From Bacillales bacterium UBA5348 (GTDB lineage Bacteria; Bacillota_I; Bacilli_A; RF39; UBA660), in NCBI GenBank assembly GCA_002411005.1, contig DHQC01000013.1, forward strand, positions 133,093 to 197,092: a DNA stretch of 64,000 nt. The letters are read 5' to 3'. Positions 33,972 through 45,610 of the stretch are shown here, piece after piece. Both the position numbers and the translations under genes were made by a program. The notes under the pieces are model-generated. The model did not search any database, was not told where the DNA came from, and was given only the letters and a program-made list of their open reading frames with translations. Position 1 is the first letter of the stretch; each line of letters opens with the position of its first letter.

Positions 33972-34139
33972 TTACTGATAATTTCTGTTAGCTATTTCAA
34001 TGGCTTTAGTGACCATGTTGCCACAGTTACGCGAGGAGACTGCTCCCCAACCTTCATTTTGAACAATATTTGAAACACCTAATTCGTTAGCAATTTCATA
34101 TTTTAAATTTTCATTCATTATACCTTTATTCTTTTTCAT
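33972..34139 (-). CDS. Small acid-soluble spore protein, alpha/beta type
   Basis: Not in the ORF track (55 aa). Sequence MKKNKGIMNENLKYEIANELGVSNIVQNEGWGAVSSRNCGNMVTKAIEIANRNYQ contains both SASP signatures (K-x-E-I-A-x-E-x-G-V and the GxMVxKxIE block). GGGAGG RBS 9 nt upstream. Confidence 0.75.
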   Translation of the reverse strand: MKKNKGIMNENLKYEIANELGVSNIVQNEGWGAVSSRNCGNMVTKAIEIANRNYQ

Positions 34140-35201: not shown

Positions 35202-35948
35202 ATGGATTATTTATCATATTATCGCCAAACTGCACCTGGTATGAGTGCTTATATTATATCGGATACTAAAACATCTGATGTTAATGGAGATGGTATAAAA
35301 GATATTATATATTTAGAAGGTACAAAACCACTAGGACCTGATAGTCTTGTAGTTGATAATATTAGGGTGGTAATTCAAGATGGAAAAACAGGGAAAGGTT
35401 ATGATATTCCTTTAAAGGTTGATAAAGGATATACACCGAAACTGTTTTTAGGAAGTTTTACAAATGACAGAATCAATGAAATTTTAATTTCTATTGAGTC
35501 TGGTAACACAGGTGAGGAAGGATATTATTATATTTATTCATTTGTTAATAATAATCCTTTAAAATTATTTGATTTCGAACAATTTAATAGTAAATATAAA
35601 TATGATGTAACATATAAAGATAATTATATAATCGAAGTAAAAAGTAATGTTTTTGATAAAACCTTTTTCATAGATGTAAAAAATAAAAATCAAAGTTATT
35701 TAAATCAATTATATGATCAAGATGGTACATTGAAAAGTCAATTTAAAGGTTATGTTTCTCCTTTAGTAAATCTTCATCCAGTATCTAGTGAATCAGAATA
35801 TGGTTATGATTTATATGCAACCCAAAGAGTAGTTGGATATTATAATGCTGATACTCTAGGAATGATTATCACACCACTAAGATGGGATGGAAAGGAATTT
35901 GCAGTAGTTAATAACAATCCATATTTGATATTATTTGGTACTGAATAA
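35202..35948 (+). CDS. Hypothetical protein
   Basis: 248 aa, beta-rich. GAGGAAG RBS. Confidence 0.45.
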   Translation: MDYLSYYRQTAPGMSAYIISDTKTSDVNGDGIKDIIYLEGTKPLGPDSLVVDNIRVVIQDGKTGKGYDIPLKVDKGYTPKLFLGSFTNDRINEILISIESGNTGEEGYYYIYSFVNNNPLKLFDFEQFNSKYKYDVTYKDNYIIEVKSNVFDKTFFIDVKNKNQSYLNQLYDQDGTLKSQFKGYVSPLVNLHPVSSESEYGYDLYATQRVVGYYNADTLGMIITPLRWDGKEFAVVNNNPYLILFGTE

Positions 35949-35967: not shown

Positions 35968-35995
35968 GCCTTATAAATTAAGGCTTTTTATTTTG
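35968..35995. terminator. Terminator (convergent genes)
   Basis: Hairpin GCCTTAtaaatTAAGGC followed by TTTTTATTTT. Confidence 0.5.
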
Positions 35996-36835
35996 ATGAT
36001 ATAAAACGGTTTGAATCCATTCTGAATAAGTTATTATGTTTAAATCATTCCTTTTTTTATTGATATAGTCAATTATTTCATAATAATCTTTTTCCTTATA
36101 TATCATTAAAGTATCGTCTATTTCCTCTTCAATTTTATGGAATAGTAAAATTAATGTTAAATTATTCTCGATAGCAAAATCTATCCATGATTTTACCCAT
36201 TTTGTTTTTGTAGTAGTAAGAACATTTTTGACTTTTATGGAATAAAGATCTTTTGGATATTTAAAGTTATAACCATCCTCTACTGATCTGCCACTAATAT
36301 AATTTAATTTTTTCATGACCGAGATGGTATCACTATTATATTTTCCTTCGGGATATACTAACACATTATTTTGATTATTAAAATTATTATCTTTTAACCA
36401 AACACCACCTTGTTTTATTTCAAATTTCTGTTGTGAAATATCTGCATTAATTAAAATATTGTGATACAGTGTATGATTTAATAAATCCCAGTTTTTATCA
36501 TGTAACATGTTTAATTCGCCTATATTTAAGTACAATTGTTGATTAATAGCATTAGGAATAATTGCTATAGAACCTCTCATATCTTTCTTATTCATGTACT
36601 TAAAACCTTTAGTATATTGAGTTTTCCAGCCATCATCAAACATAATAATTATATTAGCTTTATTTTGATAAATAAATATTTCCTTTTCTTTATTTTCCTT
36701 AAATATTAGTTTTGTCTTAATTTTAAGATAATCAAAGCTATTGTTTATATTATAGAAAATATTAGGGAAAATATTTATAAGGAGCATAAGGGTAAAAATC
36801 AAACTTGTATAAAATATTAACATATTTTTTTTCAA
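35978..36835 (-). CDS. Polysaccharide deacetylase (CE4, IcaB/PgaB-like) with N-terminal TM anchor
   Basis: NodB-homology motifs MFDDGW and a His-rich region. The start is either the TTG at 36835 or the ATG at 36823. Confidence 0.7.
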   Translation of the reverse strand: MKKNMLIFYTSLIFTLMLLINIFPNIFYNINNSFDYLKIKTKLIFKENKEKEIFIYQNKANIIIMFDDGWKTQYTKGFKYMNKKDMRGSIAIIPNAINQQLYLNIGELNMLHDKNWDLLNHTLYHNILINADISQQKFEIKQGGVWLKDNNFNNQNNVLVYPEGKYNSDTISVMKKLNYISGRSVEDGYNFKYPKDLYSIKVKNVLTTTKTKWVKSWIDFAIENNLTLILLFHKIEEEIDDTLMIYKEKDYYEIIDYINKKRNDLNIITYSEWIQTVLYHQNKKP

Positions 36836-36840
36836 ATTTA

Positions 36841-38185
36841 TCAGTCCTTTTTTAAAACGTTATAATTGTGGCCACTTCTATCAACCTTATTCCATTCGTT
36901 CTTTTCGGTAAAATATGAAATAGTCCCAACTATTATAGTATATAAAATGATTATTCTATAAACAACTAAATCTAGAATTATAGTTGTAACAATCCTAATA
37001 TTATCAAGCCCTTTATATCTTACGTTGTAAAAATATGCAATAAATAGTCCGACAACATTATATGTTAAATGGACACTTATAAAGATATAAAAATATAAGG
37101 CAATATTTGATAAAGTGTTGTTCATTATATTATCAATCACAAGGATTGTAAAAACTACTATTATAAAGGAACTTAAGACACCAATAACAAGCGCATCAAC
37201 AATCATAAAAAAGGGTAGTGGTTTGGTAAGAGTGTCTTTAAATAATCTCTTTCTGAAGTTAATTAATGCTTCAATAAAGGATTTTTGCCATCTTTTTCTT
37301 TGTTTAATTAGGTCCTTAAATGTTTCTGGTCCTTCTGTATAACATATAGCCTCAGGTACATAAACTATTTTTTTATTTGTATCTTGAATATGAAATTGTA
37401 TTTTAAGAGTAAGATCCAAGTCTTCTCCGATTGTATGTGAAAACCCGCCTACATCAAGTAGTATATCTTTTCTAAAAATTCCAAAAGCTCCCGAGATAAC
37501 AAGTAACGATTCTAATTTTGCTAAAGAAGCTTTATAACAAAAACATGATTTAATATATTCAATTGCTTGTAATCTTAGTAATAGCTTTATTTTGAAGGTT
37601 GTTTTTGCCTTTTTTTGTGAAAGATTAAATGATTGTAATATTTGGATGACACCGCTAGCAGCTACGACATTTTTATCATCAAATGTTTTACTTACTAAAG
37701 ATAGAGCATCTGGTTTTAAAATACTATCAGCATCTAACGTCACAATGTATTTGTTTTTAGAATAGTTAATACCTAAATTTAAAGCATCACTTTTCCCCCC
37801 CGTTATTTTTATCTATAAGATACATATTAGGATATAACTCGGATCTGTATATACATTTCATATTATAAGAATCTAAATTGTGCCGTCTTTTTCTTTTTGT
37901 TTCTTTTAATTTTAAAATGCTTTTGAATTCCTTTAAGGTATTATCGCTCGATCCATCATTTATAAATATGCATTCAAAATTATCATATTCAATTCTTAAT
38001 AATCCTTCAATTGTATTTTTAATTATCTTTTCCTCATTATAGCAGGGAATTAGAATGGTGACAGGGCGTATTATATTTTTCTTTATATTCTTTTTTCCCC
38101 TCTTTATACTTAATAGAACATTTAAAATATGGAAAAGAGGAAAGAATATTCCGAGAAATAAAAATATTTCTAATAATAATCTCAT
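36841..38185 (-). pseudogene. Processive family-2 glycosyltransferase (IcaA/PgaC/cellulose-synthase-like), split into two ORFs by a frameshift at a G7 tract
   Basis: ORF 37787..38185 has an N-terminal TM and the PCYNEE/DGSSD motifs, ending ...KNNGGEK*. ORF 36841..37743 plus its upstream open frame reads GGKSDALNLG...TLDADS...GEDLDLT...QRKRWQKS (D,D,D,QxxRW) with 4 C-terminal TM helices. Removing one G from the coding-strand G7 run (plus-strand C7 at 37795-37801) fuses them in frame. Confidence 0.7.
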
Positions 38186-38961
38186 GGCATATTCAAATGT
38201 TTAGGTATAATTATTACGTAATCAATTACAGTTTTAACTGGAAAAATATCATTATTAGGTTGCCCAGGCCAATTACCACCAACGGCGAGATTCAAAATTA
38301 AATACATTTTTTTGTTAGGAATCCCAACTTCAGATTTATATATTAATTTGTTATTTATGTAACCTTTTATCTCTTTTTCATTCCACTCGATTTCATAAAT
38401 TGCAAAGTCATTCTCATTCTTAATATTGGTAAATTTTTTTCTTGATGATCCGTCTAAATCTTTATAATGTATTCCAGTCCATATTTCGTCTTCCCCTTTA
38501 TTACCTAAAACTTCCATCATATCAACTTCGGGAAAAAGAGAATCGTCTGCTGGCAGGAGCCAAGCGGCTGACAAAAGGCCATTTCCAACGGCAGGTCTGA
38601 TTTTAAATATAATTTTCCCGTATAGAAATTCGAATTTACCTTTGGTTGTAATCATTCCTGAAGTATAGTTATGATCTTTAAAATTTTCTTTTTTTGCAAC
38701 TAATTCTAAAAGTCCGTCAATGATACTGATATTCTTTGGATTATAATATTGTAGGTCATTATTATAGCTTTCTCCTTGTTCAACAGCATTCCAAAATCTT
38801 GTATTAAGTTTCCCATTAAAATCATCAACTAAAATATTATTATTTTCTTCTTCAATAACATTTATTTTGTAGACTTTCTGATATGGCGTTTTTGTTATTA
38901 AACAAAAAAATACGATTAGTAAAATAAAAAATGTATATTTCATGATACGTTTTTTATTCAT
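38182..38961 (-). CDS. Glycoside hydrolase family 16 (beta-glucanase/laminarinase-like) with signal/TM anchor
   Basis: Catalytic motif EVDMMEVLG (ExDxxE) and the GH16 beta-jelly-roll pattern. GAGGTGA RBS. Its stop overlaps the GT2 start (ATGA). Confidence 0.75.
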   Translation of the reverse strand: MNKKRIMKYTFFILLIVFFCLITKTPYQKVYKINVIEEENNNILVDDFNGKLNTRFWNAVEQGESYNNDLQYYNPKNISIIDGLLELVAKKENFKDHNYTSGMITTKGKFEFLYGKIIFKIRPAVGNGLLSAAWLLPADDSLFPEVDMMEVLGNKGEDEIWTGIHYKDLDGSSRKKFTNIKNENDFAIYEIEWNEKEIKGYINNKLIYKSEVGIPNKKMYLILNLAVGGNWPGQPNNDIFPVKTVIDYVIIIPKHLNMP

Positions 38962-39059: not shown

Positions 39060-39100
39060 ACAATCTATGCAAAATAAAAGATTTGTGAAAATCCACAAAT
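39060..39100 (-). terminator. Terminator downstream of the 39114 gene
   Basis: Hairpin GATTTGTGaaaatCCACAAATC, with TTTTATTTTG following on the minus strand. Confidence 0.45.
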
Positions 39101-39113
39101 CCTAAATACAGAT

Positions 39114-40139
39114 TTAATTTTTCTTCTTATTAGATATCTTAAGAGCTATTTCCAGTTTATCTAATAATATTTGTTCTAATACTGTTATCTTTGAGATGGT
39201 TTTATTAATTGATGCATTAATTTTTAATATATCAGATTGTTTATCAGAATTTTCTAAAGCAATTTTAATTTTCTGGGTTTCAGTATTTAAAATTTCTGCT
39301 AAAGAACTTTCAATAGATGCAATAGATTCTATAATATCAATTTCAGTTTTACGTTTTTCTTGAGATTTGCTGTGACAATTATTGCGATAACATTTTATGT
39401 CAGTTAAATAAATATAATTATATAAATCGTTTTTTGTAACAAGTAATTGGAGTAAACCATCTATATTCATTAAACTGTTTATTGTTATATCATCATCAAT
39501 ATAAATGTTTTTAATAATGTTTCCCCTACGTGAAGCTAAGGCAATAAATGAGGATCCATTTTTAGAATAGGCTATATATTTGTAATTAGAAAAACAGAGA
39601 CTAGCTGTAATTTCTACTTCTTTGATATTTGTGATGGTGGAAACACATGTATGACGACCATTTTTTGTTGTGAGATTATTTTGAACATAATCTTTTTTAT
39701 ACTCATTAGATATAGCATATATTTGTATTTCTTCTTTAATAAAATAACCCTCTTCAGTTATTGAATAAACACTATTTGTTGTGGTAATTAATATTGTTTT
39801 ATGCTCTTTGTTATAGGATAAATTTTTAATAGGATATAAATATTTATCAGGAACCATTAATTTAATAATATTGATTTCAATAAAGCTTTGATCTAAAACA
39901 TAAATATTTTTACTATCATCAACACTTGATACATAAAAAGATTCATCATGTCCATTATTAATTATTGAATTATAAGGTTTGTTAGTTTGAAAGGTTTTTT
40001 TTTCTAAAGTGATTGTGTTATAGATTGATATAGAGCAACTATAGGGTTGTACTAAATAATATATGTGATTAAGAAAAATGCTGCCTTTGTATATATTTGT
40101 TGGATCATTTAGTAAGGGAAAAGATTTGAATGTATTAAT
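39114..40139 (-). CDS. Hypothetical beta-rich protein with C-terminal helical IIESxAxxExxL...ITVLxxxL domain. The annotated ATG (39857) lacks an RBS and the frame stays open to a consensus SD 300 nt upstream, so a non-canonical ATT start is possible.
   Basis: The ORF track gives 39114..39857. The same frame is stop-free for 101 further codons up to AAAGGAGGT (minus strand, plus 40151-40158), with ATT 8 nt downstream of it (plus 40137-40139) and a TAA immediately upstream. Confidence 0.45.
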   Translation of the reverse strand: MNTFKSFPLLNDPTNIYKGSIFLNHIYYLVQPYSCSISIYNTITLEKKTFQTNKPYNSIINNGHDESFYVSSVDDSKNIYVLDQSFIEINIIKLMVPDKYLYPIKNLSYNKEHKTILITTTNSVYSITEEGYFIKEEIQIYAISNEYKKDYVQNNLTTKNGRHTCVSTITNIKEVEITASLCFSNYKYIAYSKNGSSFIALASRRGNIIKNIYIDDDITINSLMNIDGLLQLLVTKNDLYNYIYLTDIKCYRNNCHSKSQEKRKTEIDIIESIASIESSLAEILNTETQKIKIALENSDKQSDILKINASINKTISKITVLEQILLDKLEIALKISNKKKN

Positions 40140-40255
40140 GTTATATACCTCCTTTAAAATTTAATATATTATATGTTTAAAAATGTTAAAGGAACATTCC
40201 AAAAAATATATCCGCCATATAATATTTTGAAAATGAAAGAAAAGGAGGTTTTCAT

Positions 40256-40549
40256 ATGTCTGACCCAACATCTAAAATGCCCGAAAGGTATATTACTAGA
40301 GAACAGGCAATTACTGATATTATTGAATCAGTTGCTTTAGAAGAAGCTGCTTTGTCTCATATCTTAAAAGCAGAAGGAGATAAAATCCATAAGTTTTTAG
40401 AAAAAGCTAGATGCCCAGGTGATTTACTACTTATTAATAAATCGGTTCAATCTATGATTAGTGTAATCACAGTTCTACAAGCTGTTCTACATGCTAAAAT
40501 TGAACTTTTTGCTTGTGATAATAATGATTATGAGTATGAGGAATATTAA
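40256..40549 (+). CDS. Small helical protein paralogous to the C-terminal domain of the divergent 39114 gene
   Basis: 97 aa. DIIESVALEEAALSHILKAEGDKI...LLLINKSVQSMISVITVLQAVLHAKIE aligns with IIESIASIESSLAEILNTETQKI...ILKINASINKTISKITVLEQILLDKLE in the neighbour. AAAGGAGG RBS. Confidence 0.5.
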   Translation: MSDPTSKMPERYITREQAITDIIESVALEEAALSHILKAEGDKIHKFLEKARCPGDLLLINKSVQSMISVITVLQAVLHAKIELFACDNNDYEYEEY

Positions 40550-40570: not shown

Positions 40571-40600
40571 ATTGAAAAAGAGTCTAAATTATTAGACTCT
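40571..40600. terminator. Bidirectional terminator
   Basis: Hairpin AAGAGTCTAAattatTAGACTCTT. Confidence 0.55.
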
Positions 40601-40605
40601 TTATA

Positions 40606-41474
40606 TTATTTTTCATTTTTCATTTTATAAGTTAATCCATAACCTCCAGGTCCGATATGACTAGCAATTACAGGCCCAATTTCAGTTAATATATATTTGC
40701 CGGTTATTTTTAAATTTTCAACATTTTCTTGCAATTTAACTGCACCATCTAAATTATCAGAATGTACAATTCCAATTGCATCAATATCATTTTTATCAAT
40801 TTTCGAAAGCATTCTATCTATTAATATTGAATTCATTCTTTTTGAACCTCTAACTTTTTCAACAACTTGTACTTTACCAAATTCGTCTATATTTATTAAA
40901 GGTTTTACTCTTAATAGTTGACCTAATGAGGCCGCTGTTTTTGAAATACGTCCACCATGGATAAGATAAGTTAAATCATCTACAAAAAATTCAATGTTAT
41001 AGTAGTCTTTGTATTTGTTGATATATGTGATTATTTCTTCGTAATTTTTCCCTTCTTTTTTCATATTTAAAGCCTTTAGTGCTATAAGACCTTCAGCAAG
41101 TGATCCAGTTAAAGAATCAATAACAGCTATTTTTGAATCGGGATATTTCTTTTGTAACATGTTTTTAGCGATTACGATGTTGTTATAGCTGCTACTTAAT
41201 CCAGATGAAAGACATATACAAATAATGTCATTACCTTTTGTTAGGTCTTCTTCAAAAAGCTCTACAGCTTTAGATGTGTTGACAGCAGCTGTTCTTGGCA
41301 TTGCTCCTGTCCTCATTTTATTAAAATTTCTCTCATAGTAAGATTTTTTTCATCACCATACTCAATATCTTCACCATTAAAATAGTAATATATTGGTATT
41401 GTTTTAATTTCTGGATAGTCCTTTATATTTGGAATATCTGAGCATTTGTCTACAAAAATAGAAATATCATTCAT
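40606..41474 (-). pseudogene. degV: DegV/FakB family fatty-acid-binding protein, frameshifted near an A7 tract
   Basis: The N-terminal 53 codons (MNDISIFVDKCSDIPNIKDYPEIKTIPIYYYFNGEDIEYGDEK...) run from ATG 41474 (GGTGGAGGG RBS) to a TGA at 41313-41315. The rest (ORF 40606..41316, ...SSGLSSSYNN... DegV core) is in the -1 frame. Adding one A to the coding-strand A7 run (plus T7 at 41344-41350) restores ...DEKKSYYERNFNKMRTGAMPRTAAVN... Confidence 0.6.
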
Positions 41475-43567: not shown

Positions 43568-43596
43568 TTGACTTTGCAAAGTTCTTACTATATAAT
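43568..43596 (+). promoter_or_regulatory. Sigma-A-type promoter for the 43638 gene
   Basis: TTGACT, a 17-nt spacer, then TATAAT. Confidence 0.55.
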
Positions 43597-43637
43597 AGCA
43601 ACCCAATTAAAACGTTTTAAAAAGGCGAGGTGATCAT

Positions 43638-45107
43638 ATGAGCTTTTATCCCTTAGAAAGATTAAAAAGTGGAAAGATTGATTTTTTATTTAATCTAACA
43701 CCATCTGATAGAAAAAGAATTATTGAAGATCTGAGAAAATCAGAAGAAAGAGAAATTATTGTGGCAGAATTTTTAAGTAAGGCAATAAAACGTTTGCCCT
43801 ACTTTTGCCTTGAAGTAATATATGATATGGATAAATATTATAATGAAACCTTTGACTTATTAAAAAAATATAAAATAGCTTTTGATGATGAAAAAATTGG
43901 TAATGTAATTAACAACACCTCTTTTGGCGAAAAATATGTATATGATAACTTGGATGAAATACTATTGAAAAACGAAGAATCAAGAATAGATATGCTAATT
44001 GATTTTGCGTATAATAAATCTGAAAATAAAGATAAATGGCTTTGTAGATTGTCAAAAAACAATAATTTGCATCAACGAGCTTTATTTATGATAAGTATAT
44101 TAAAAAAGCATCCTCAGGATTTAGCAGAAATTTATGATAATATAATTGAATATTTAACTTCCGAAAATGGTTTTGGTGATATACAATTATCTTGGTTTCC
44201 GGAAAAGATTTCGTCTAAGGATTTAAGTTTAATAACATACTTAGTATCAAAAACCAAATTAGATCGAAGTTTATATTTAGAATTAAAAGAGTATTTGTTA
44301 ACTAATTATAAAGAAAATGATTTGGCTGAAATGTTTTTAAAGAATTATCTAATTTCAAACAGAAACTTTCAAATAGATTCCAGGGAATCAGGAATGATTG
44401 AATTTAAACAAGATTCAAACAGATTATTTAAAACTTCCAGAAATTATCAACTCCGAATTTTAGAACAATATAGTGAAAACATAAGCAAAGACTTGTTAGA
44501 AAAATTCAAATATTATTTACAGTTTTTTCAAAATGAAAACGTTCCAAGATATTTATTGTCAGAAATGTTTAGTAAAGGATTAGGTTCGGATATAAGAAGA
44601 TGTATAGATATTTATTACCCTAAGAGTAAGGAACAAAGTTGTGAATTTGTTGGAAGGGGTAGTACTAGTAGTTGTTTTAGAATAGGGGATTATGTTTTAA
44701 AATTGAGTACTATAAAATGGTCTTACGAGGATGTTATTTGTCCAAATTTATATTTGATAATTAAAAATGAAGAGGAAAAATTCGTTCGCGATGATAAGGG
44801 TATTGTAAGAGCAGCCCTAGAAGTTCAAAAACACTTAAAAAGAACTGCTAAAGATCTACCTTCTGAACATTTTGTCTACTTTAATAAAGAACTTAATAGA
44901 TTGGGTTATATGTATACCGATACATTAATAAATGGAATGTGTGGAGATAATTGTATGCTTTTAGACAGTTATAAGGATGCTGATTGTTTTAATCCTGAAA
45001 GTTTACCAGAAATGTTTAAAAGGGTACCATTAGTATTAATTGATAGAGATAGAGTCTATCCTAAAAACAAAATTTATATTAAGCAATTAAGCGAAGGCCA
45101 TTCTTAA
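43638..45107 (+). CDS. Hypothetical protein: N-terminal alpha-helical domain plus C-terminal atypical protein-kinase-like domain
   Basis: The C-terminal 160 aa carry a Gly-rich loop VGRGSTSSCF, beta3 Lys context YVLKL, then ...GMCGDNCML... and ...VLIDRDR..., consistent with RIO/Kdo-type minimal kinases. Strong promoter and RBS. Confidence 0.45.
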   Translation: MSFYPLERLKSGKIDFLFNLTPSDRKRIIEDLRKSEEREIIVAEFLSKAIKRLPYFCLEVIYDMDKYYNETFDLLKKYKIAFDDEKIGNVINNTSFGEKYVYDNLDEILLKNEESRIDMLIDFAYNKSENKDKWLCRLSKNNNLHQRALFMISILKKHPQDLAEIYDNIIEYLTSENGFGDIQLSWFPEKISSKDLSLITYLVSKTKLDRSLYLELKEYLLTNYKENDLAEMFLKNYLISNRNFQIDSRESGMIEFKQDSNRLFKTSRNYQLRILEQYSENISKDLLEKFKYYLQFFQNENVPRYLLSEMFSKGLGSDIRRCIDIYYPKSKEQSCEFVGRGSTSSCFRIGDYVLKLSTIKWSYEDVICPNLYLIIKNEEEKFVRDDKGIVRAALEVQKHLKRTAKDLPSEHFVYFNKELNRLGYMYTDTLINGMCGDNCMLLDSYKDADCFNPESLPEMFKRVPLVLIDRDRVYPKNKIYIKQLSEGHS

Positions 45108-45149
45108 AACAATAAACTCTAACTAATTGTAGTTAGAGTTTATTGTTTC
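45108..45149. terminator. Bidirectional terminator (18-bp perfect stem)
   Basis: Hairpin AACAATAAACTCTAACTAattgTAGTTAGAGTTTATTGTT. Confidence 0.65.
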
Positions 45150-45610
45150 TTTAAGTCTAATAAATGTTGAATTTGCCAATTTCTTTCATCTTCCATTAAT
45201 TGAGTAACATTATCTTTATCTTTATCTTTATCTTTATTTAAATGATATATAGCTGAAACTACATACATGGCTGATCCTTCTGAATGGGTAGGGACATGGC
45301 AAGTCACTAAAGCATGGCTACAGGCCCTACAAATTTGACATGCTGCTTTATCGATTGGTTCTAATTCTCTAGCAGCGGCTAGAGCAGGATATGTGAACTT
45401 TCTAGCATCCCACATTTTCATCTCACCGTTAATCCATTTTTTTAACATATTTATTGCAGTACGAGGTCTAACCTCATTGGAATATTTATCCTCAAGTAAT
45501 GGCATATATTTTTCAACGCAATCAATTGCCCAAATAGCTAAAATCTTTTGGTCTGTTGTTTTTATTATTTCGACTAATCTAGGATCGTGCCTTAATTTTC
45601 TCATATCCAT
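45140..45610 (-). CDS. Hypothetical Cys/His-cluster protein (third gene of the DNPH1-like operon)
   Basis: 156 aa. Putative metal-binding cluster CQICRACSHALVTCHVPTH. Contains a KDKDKDKD hexanucleotide repeat. 4-nt gap to the upstream gene. Confidence 0.45.
   Translation of the reverse strand: MDMRKLRHDPRLVEIIKTTDQKILAIWAIDCVEKYMPLLEDKYSNEVRPRTAINMLKKWINGEMKMWDARKFTYPALAAARELEPIDKAACQICRACSHALVTCHVPTHSEGSAMYVVSAIYHLNKDKDKDKDNVTQLMEDERNWQIQHLLDLKKQ

Follow-up and report, generated by a model that had tools for sequence, protein, structure and literature searches.

A divergent gene pair from an uncultured member of Bacilli encodes two A_ENA-domain proteins, probable components of a sporesilk-type endospore appendage

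The endospores of Bacillus thuringiensis israelensis (Bti) carry 'sporesilk', an appendage whose A-ENA subunit (PDB 9ihh) was resolved by cryo-electron microscopy at 2.1 Å in the founding study of the A-ENA family (Sleutel, Sogues and Remaut, Nat Commun 2026; PMC13111695). The subunit has 101 aa and folds as a helical hairpin, preceded at the N-terminus by a latch of 13 residues; the hairpins stack into a two-protofilament cross-alpha fibre on the Bti spores, in which neighbouring subunits are locked together by intermolecular isopeptide bonds of five types, all formed autocatalytically (PMC13111695). Both A-ENA and A-ENA1 self-assemble into fibres with no partner, and A-ENA does so efficiently in E. 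coli with no accessory factor (PMC13111695). The main text and methods of the same study, which counts five classes of passenger, also describe fusions in which an N-terminal A_ENA domain is followed by C-terminal passengers, such as collagen/C1q ('A-BclA'), SdrD_B/OmcB or 4Fe-4S domains, and propose that the A_ENA part inserts in, or at the terminus of, the fibre while the passenger provides the function (PMC13111695). Here, we describe a divergent gene pair in a 64,000-nucleotide stretch of DNA from Bacillales bacterium UBA5348 (GCA_002411005.1, contig DHQC01000013.1, positions 133,093 to 197,092; hereafter the window, in whose numbering all coordinates are given unless another locus is named). 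Both proteins of the pair carry the A_ENA helical-hairpin domain: a short protein consisting of little else and a long protein in which the hairpin follows a predicted beta-propeller. In our assessment, the two products probably belong to an endospore appendage of the A-ENA ('sporesilk') type, as a short polymer subunit and a propeller-bearing end protein. The genes and their ribosome-binding sites, the latter read from the sequence, are as follows.

40256..40549, plus strand: short A_ENA gene, 97 aa, encoding the putative major fibre subunit
40242..40248, plus strand: AAGGAGG, the short gene's ribosome-binding site, 7 nt upstream of the ATG
39114..40139, minus strand: long gene, 341 aa plus stop, with a putative ATT start at 40139-40137
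40148..40154, minus strand: AAGGAGG, the long gene's ribosome-binding site, 8 nt upstream of the ATT

A preliminary description of this DNA, which placed the plus-strand gene correctly, proposed that the two proteins are homologous and share a helical domain of a family that it could not recognise. The homology was confirmed by pairwise alignment, with 29 identities over 64 aa (45%) in an ungapped BLASTP match (E=5e-13), and the common domain of about 60-70 aa was recovered by BLASTP as well as in the AlphaFold2 (AF2) models. The family is no longer unrecognised, as the domain maps to a well-characterised one, Pfam PF26595 'A_ENA', with the solved structure 9ihh. The PF26595 label was precomputed for the long protein, for the short protein and for every homologue in the large protein collection. 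The short protein matched 9ihh_A ('Ex vivo spore-silk A-ENA fibers') with a phmmer E-value of 1.1e-7, and a profile built from 30 short homologues matched the same chain over its full length (E=9.3e-23). The hairpin of the long protein was recognised by our own A_ENA hidden Markov model (HMM), built from short proteins only, with E=6e-13. Membership of A_ENA, judged by sequence match to the family model or the founding member, was thus found. Scans of both proteins with Pfam-A and NCBIfam returned only sub-threshold noise (Pox_A3L, SUS_EPBD, TusB, BchJ), the Pfam copy used being one without PF26595. In the whole window, our HMM found just these two A_ENA genes. Two 'hypothetical proteins' can now be named after a domain already characterised in 2026, and the match supports a spore-surface role, which had been among the candidates first put forward.

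The AF2 model of the short protein, computed with 30 homologues supplied, is a helical hairpin with a mean predicted local distance difference test (pLDDT) score of 79.6, rising to about 90 in the helices. Residues 1-14 are non-helical or extended and are followed by a helix at 15-50, the loop ARCPGD and a second helix at 54-89. This corresponds to the A_ENA layout of a hairpin with an extended latch of about 13 residues. Past the motif 'ELFACD', the chain ends in an acidic and aromatic (Tyr/Glu) tail.

The residues that form the covalent bonds of the Bti fibre were traced in an alignment of the pBtoxis-encoded A-ENA and A-ENA1, the window proteins and 44 short homologues. The reference bonds are G2-Q44 (type 1), K42-N64 assisted by E39 (type 2), K84-E29 (type 3) and K77-E78 (type 4), both assisted by E28, and K76-Q82 assisted by E86 (type 5) (PMC13111695). 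In the short protein, type 2 is intact (K43/N61/E40 for the reference K42/N64/E39), as is type 3 (K81/E30/E29 for K84/E29/E28), and there are no partners for types 1 (H45), 4 (L74) and 5 (V73, H79). E39, K42 and N64 were invariant in 44/44 short homologues. Recombinant A-ENA1 fibres, in which types 1 and 5 are missing, were not observably less stable (PMC13111695). The pattern of kept and missing bonds bears on an alternative that we regard as unlikely, in which both proteins belong, through their A_ENA domains, to a layer of the spore (coat, crust or exosporium) and not to free fibres, and the hairpin is a self-crosslinking module that fastens the propeller protein in a matrix, two-dimensional or amorphous, at the spore surface. 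Such a layer would draw on the same family, sporulation and promoter evidence, and the absence of three of the five bond types, including K76-Q82, which links the two protofilaments, would suit it. However, the conserved types 2 and 3 are exactly those of axial stacking, which define a protofilament; A-ENA and A-ENA1 form fibres without any partner (PMC13111695); and pairing a short polymerising subunit with a fusion protein follows the fibre-plus-'ruffle' scheme put forward in the founding study (PMC13111695).

The long gene extends beyond its first ATG. The open reading frame (ORF) counted from that codon covers 39114..39857 (247 aa), but the frame continues upstream of 39857 for 101 further codons (open to 40160) up to a stop at 40161-40163, and homologues from other metagenomes have 335-368 aa. 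The start methionine of four of these homologues (P0051 and P0053-55) aligns exactly with the ATT at 40139-40137. We infer a 341-aa gene with an ATT start from the open frame, the alignment of the homologous methionines and the AAGGAGG located 8 nt upstream, so that the minus-strand coordinates first reported were too short by about 94 codons. Sister-strain contigs are 99.6% identical to the window, and the whole gene pair differs from them by a single base, TTG instead of the window's TTA at 40113; because of this substitution, gene callers report 333 aa in the sister contigs and 247 aa in the window.

The long protein was modelled by AF2 from only six sequences (mean pLDDT 75.7) and is divided into three parts.

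39393..40127, minus strand: N-terminal all-beta domain (residues 5-249), predicted five-bladed beta-propeller (AF2, Foldseek)
39363..39392, minus strand: flexible Cys-containing linker (residues 250-259, C-Y-R-N-N-C-H-S-K-S; AF2 and alignment)
39129..39362, minus strand: C-terminal A_ENA hairpin, helices 260-297 and 301-337 (BLASTP, HMM, AF2)

Residues 5-249 form 21 strands in five four-stranded sheets, with block pLDDT values of about 80-93 over most of the domain and a disordered insert at residues 147-171, which gives the N-terminal region, earlier described simply as beta-rich, a predicted fold. All Foldseek matches of this domain in the PDB were beta-propellers, and the best-covered were five-bladed glutaminyl cyclases (PDB 3nol, 3mbr, 2iwa; TMt 0.61-0.65). 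The resemblance to these enzymes is one of predicted five-bladed topology; at about 10-12% identity (about 10% in the Foldseek alignments) nothing suggests a conserved active site, and the likeness, confined to the level of the fold, carries no enzymatic implication. No Pfam family covered the propeller domain when the long protein and six propeller domains were scanned. The linker region is disordered (pLDDT below 50 for residues 253-266), and in homologues it is far richer in cysteine, with Cys-rich inserts in P0053-55. Linkers of this kind are typical of coat and exosporium proteins and would also suit the coat-layer alternative. In the long protein, the propeller and linker stand in place of the latch. 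Inspection of both N-termini by eye, with no predictor, revealed no signal peptide and no hydrophobic segment, which fits assembly within the mother cell.

When 1.84 billion representative proteins were searched with a profile of the propeller domain alone, 160 matched at E<=1e-3, of which 31 reached E<=1e-30; their length was mostly 300-400 aa. Our HMM found a C-terminal A_ENA domain in 114 of the 121 full-length propeller homologues. The propeller-A_ENA fusion thus occurs in at least 114 clusters (50% identity) from Clostridia and Bacilli. Metagenome-assembled genomes (MAGs) carrying it were assigned to Clostridia, Bacilli, Erysipelotrichaceae, Defluviitaleaceae, Oscillospiraceae and Aminipila; the sole isolate among 20 named representatives was Clostridium sp. 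KNHs205 (WP_242860592.1), and all 20 were annotated as 'hypothetical protein'. The residues of the fusion class (n=114) differ from those of the short proteins in a systematic way. Most of the bond-forming positions are kept (E39 in 112, K42 in 107, N64 in 103, E29 in 105, K84 in 96 and E78 in 110), and K84 and E29 are conserved in both classes. In contrast, E28 was present in 42/44 short proteins versus 13/114 propeller-class proteins, where I, V or M occupied the position in 80/114; positions 76 and 82 likewise differ between the classes. The window's long protein follows this pattern: type 2 is intact, the donor and acceptor of type 3 are kept with isoleucine at the catalytic E28, and the other types are lost. 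The long gene represents a domain architecture that is widespread, is marked by its own residue signature and is not described in the literature available to us.

The loss of E28, together with the replacement of the latch by the propeller, suggests that one face of the long hairpin may receive no further subunit, which would make the long protein an end subunit. We tentatively extend this to the propeller-A_ENA proteins as a whole, as a widespread undescribed class of end subunits that would be joined to the fibre by a one-directional link fixing its polarity, with the propeller and linker tethering the fibre or binding a ligand; we hold this broader proposal with less than even confidence. 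In this picture, the last subunit of the fibre would capture the C-terminal hairpin covalently, the change of E28 to I/V/M would make the link one-directional, and the propeller with its Cys-rich linker would either hold the fibre on the spore surface or bind a ligand from outside. Alternatively, the propeller-A_ENA protein could be an assembly factor in place of an anchor or adhesin: as a nucleator or a regulator of length, it would provide the template on which the short subunit polymerises. The strict divergent pairing with shared promoters described below would agree with this, as would a hairpin that keeps donor and acceptor residues and could seed a filament. We nevertheless think it quite improbable, as A-ENA polymerises efficiently in E. 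coli without accessory factors (PMC13111695) and beta-propellers are typically binding platforms; a nucleator would also be a terminal subunit and so would overlap with the end-protein model.

The pairing was conserved in all the loci in which it was compared, namely the window and eight others (L005, L006, L009 and L012-L016). In 9/9, a short gene starting with an A_ENA domain lay head-to-head with a propeller-A_ENA gene, and the long proteins were 35-41% identical; the narrow peptide patterns used to scan GTDB gave close relatives only. In most relatives the short partner has 195-200 aa and consists of the A_ENA domain, the motif 'ELFKDCxC' and a beta-rich C-terminal passenger of about 100 aa (L005 6030-6617, L006 3475-4074 and the equivalents in L012-L015). 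The short partner in the window and in L016 ends just past the 'ELF.C' motif. A-ENA1 of B. thuringiensis likewise has a C-terminal C-S-C. A third C-terminal-A_ENA protein with a different N-terminal domain (starting MNNLGIANDFNIYTLNDHTQSNTDSEGRVAVAGNATY) is encoded beside the pair in L016 (2357-3412, plus strand), so that N-terminal A_ENA passengers are not confined to the propeller. L011-L015 are titled 'uncultured Muribaculaceae bacterium', a family of Bacteroidota, yet at least one of the contigs (L005/L011) encodes the spore germination proteins GerA/GerAC; these labels look wrong, or the bins are contaminated.

The two genes of the window are separated by 116 bp that carry CATATAATA on each strand. 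The preliminary description had noted this sequence as a possible -10 element in the shared region, and it proved to be present twice, once for each gene.

40216..40224, plus strand: CATATAATA, SigK-type -10 element (CATAnnnTA) of the short gene, ending 31 nt before the ATG
40167..40175, minus strand: CATATAATA, SigK-type -10 element of the long gene, ending 27 nt before the ATT
40191..40200, no strand assigned: GGAACATTCC dyad, read directly from the DNA, exactly midway and 15 nt from each -10 element
39078..39103, minus strand: intrinsic-terminator-like hairpin with T-run, 3' of the long gene (terminator scan)
40577..40602, plus strand: intrinsic-terminator-like hairpin 3' of the short gene, common to the convergent degV (terminator scan)

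CATAnnnTA is the -10 consensus of Bacillus subtilis SigK. It was located 25-40 nt upstream of the start codon in 15/18 genes of the nine loci, the background being 0.55 sites per kb per strand, and the remaining three genes had one-mismatch or SigE-like variants. In most relatives, a -35 'AC' was found 16-17 nt upstream of the -10 element. The Bti a-ena gene has a SigK site, CACCTTTGGAATAGCTGTTACATATAATA, 46 bp upstream (PMC13111695), and the CATATAATA of the window is identical to its -10 when the sequences are compared. A reporter of the a-ena promoter region was active in sporulating cells only (PMC13111695). A scan of the intergenic region for sigma-70 promoters gave no match above chance. 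The GGAACATTCC dyad is possibly a site for a shared mother-cell regulator or a pair of overlapping -35 regions. Two terminator-like hairpins were found in the region against 0.3 expected. Both genes are monocistronic, and their transcription probably takes place late in the mother cell, from two SigK-type promoters set back to back.

Further genes place the pair in a spore-forming background.

33972-34139, minus strand: gene for a small acid-soluble spore protein (SASP)
35202-35948, in the window: YybI_C gene

The YybI_C gene would also favour placement of the pair in a coat layer, since its namesake, YybI of B. subtilis, is presumably a spore coat protein. A SleB-like Hydrolase_2 gene is found near the pair in sister strains, and GerA/GerAC genes adjoin it in L005. 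The window has a GC content of 28.7% and is 100% identical to a Logan contig over 30256-50549. The host is best explained as an uncultured, low-GC, spore-forming member of Bacilli.

The sporulation context also bears on whether the pair belongs to spores at all. The combination of a small helical hairpin and a larger partner could instead be read as toxin and immunity protein, as part of a phage tail or as a secreted pair of the ESX/WXG100 kind; the surrounding region is variable and holds an Imm5_like gene at a distance of about 5 kb, and Foldseek lists EsxB (4j10_B), though only at a non-significant E=5. This we consider highly improbable: PHROGs, PADLOC and Pfam WXG100 were all without match, the pair has strong and specific homology to a solved spore fibre together with a sporulation-type promoter motif, and germination and spore genes accompany it in other genomes. 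The phage-tail and toxin-immunity candidates of the preliminary description thus found no support in PHROGs or PADLOC, and we dropped them along with other defence functions. We also rejected a WXG100/ESX hairpin, in view of the missing Pfam match, the EsxB score and the loop K-A-R-C-P-G-D, which is without W-x-G. A subunit of the S-ENA/L-ENA type was set aside as well, as neither protein matched Pfam DUF3992 and the models predict a helical hairpin and a beta-propeller.

For the favoured A-ENA-type appendage, we propose the following assembly. By homology with the B. thuringiensis fibre, the 97-aa protein would polymerise, its hairpins stacking axially into a cross-alpha filament. Stacking would set the Lys donors beside the Asn/Glu acceptors and the catalytic Glu of neighbouring subunits, and isopeptides would form autocatalytically between K43 and N61 (with E40) and between K81 and E30 (with E29). 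The 341-aa protein may dock on the same filament through its C-terminal hairpin and become covalently tied. It most likely sits at one end of the fibre, because a bulky propeller replaces the latch and because E28 is lost throughout the class; there, it would either attach the fibre to the spore, with the Cys-containing linker assisting at the surface, or form a distal binding tip.

Several observations weigh against this proposal. Only two of the five reference isopeptide triads are intact in the short protein, whose N-terminus, MSDPTSKMPERY, is without the M-[GS]-M-P-x-I latch start of its relatives and whose counterpart of Q44 is a histidine. A Foldseek search of the short model against the PDB returned nothing significant, and 9ihh was not among the matches, although hairpins score poorly in such searches or the entry may be missing. 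The long-protein hairpin, taken alone, matched 9ihh weakly (phmmer E=0.058) and was modelled at moderate confidence only (pLDDT 62-71). The -35 'AC' of the short gene lies at 20 nt, and that of the long gene is absent, versus the expected 16-17 nt. The ATT start of the long gene is putative, and the terminal position of its product, as anchor or tip, is purely what we infer. No fibre has been seen, and the organism is known from metagenome assemblies alone.

Other differences and genes were recorded in the vicinity of the pair. Compared with the 99.6%-identical sister contigs, the window has one additional C in a C-run (37795) and one A fewer in an A-run (41322). As a result of the extra C, the gene for a family 2 glycosyltransferase (GT2; 447 aa, intact elsewhere) is split into 36841..37743 and 37787..38185, and as a result of the missing A, degV (289 aa elsewhere) is split into 40606..41316 and 41313..41474. 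The two differences may be sequencing errors in homopolymers; otherwise, they are real and reflect frameshifts specific to the strain or phase variation. Between gltX and the Imm5_like gene, the window and L001 have a strain-specific insertion (43587-45160) that is absent from the three sister contigs; its ORF (43638..45107, plus strand, 489 aa) has no Pfam match on record. The segment 49218-53588 (about 4.4 kb) has no counterpart in L002-L004, where about 60 bp separate its flanks. On the strand of the long gene, directly downstream of it but past its terminator, 35978-38961 (minus strand) encodes a family 16 glycoside hydrolase (GH16), the split GT2 (with chitin-synthase-like hits) and a polysaccharide deacetylase; a gene for the last of these flanks the pair in L005 too. 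The pair may be linked to spore-surface polysaccharide.

Few known protein polymers withstand chemical attack as well as A-ENA fibres, which act as a virulence factor in B. thuringiensis. The main text and methods of the founding paper mention no anchor for them. With regard to how the fibres are attached, oriented and functionalised, the conserved propeller-A_ENA partner is a testable candidate for the missing terminal anchor or adhesin, with the loss of E28 as a second testable feature. The present locus extends the A-ENA system from insect pathogens to uncultured anaerobes from metagenomes and, for use in materials, points to a natural route to display a folded domain at the end of a fibre.

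Among described systems, the S-ENA/L-ENA appendages of the B. cereus group (Ena1A/B/C, Ena3A, the L-BclA tip and the ExsL anchor; DUF3992) resemble the proposed one in combining a small self-assembling subunit with anchor or tip proteins, and in being covalently stabilised spore appendages made by the mother cell. Unlike the hairpins and isopeptides considered here, they rely on a beta jellyroll and disulfide-linked N-terminal connectors, and there is no sequence similarity. The fusions described within the A-ENA family, such as 'A-BclA', are closer, as they too join A_ENA to a passenger and are encoded beside single-domain A_ENA subunits. However, their order is reversed relative to the long protein, whose passenger is N-terminal and whose A_ENA domain is C-terminal, and the systematic loss of the catalytic E28 sets the propeller class apart; the short partners in L005, L006 and L012-L015 do carry a C-terminal passenger of about 100 aa. 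An N-terminal passenger or propeller fusion is not mentioned in the main text and methods of PMC13111695. As the propeller has no Pfam model, an InterProScan survey of C-terminal fusions would miss propeller-A_ENA proteins. The closest counterpart is the Bti locus itself. Its A-ENA and A-ENA1 (Q8KNV8/Q8KNV7) have about 100 aa, with an extended N-terminal segment before the hairpin, and the short protein keeps their K42-N64/E39 and K84-E29/E28 triads, whereas the partners of the N-terminus-Q44, K77-E78 and K76-Q82 bonds (types 1, 4 and 5) are not conserved. The window locus is chromosomal, from a MAG of an uncultured member of Bacilli, with no Cry/Cyt toxins and no amidase between the genes; its genes are divergent, with one common control region, and its second paralogue is a 341-aa protein with a C-terminal A_ENA fusion instead of a near-copy. 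In both cases, two A_ENA paralogues are encoded at one locus in a spore-forming host, under an identical SigK-type -10 element.

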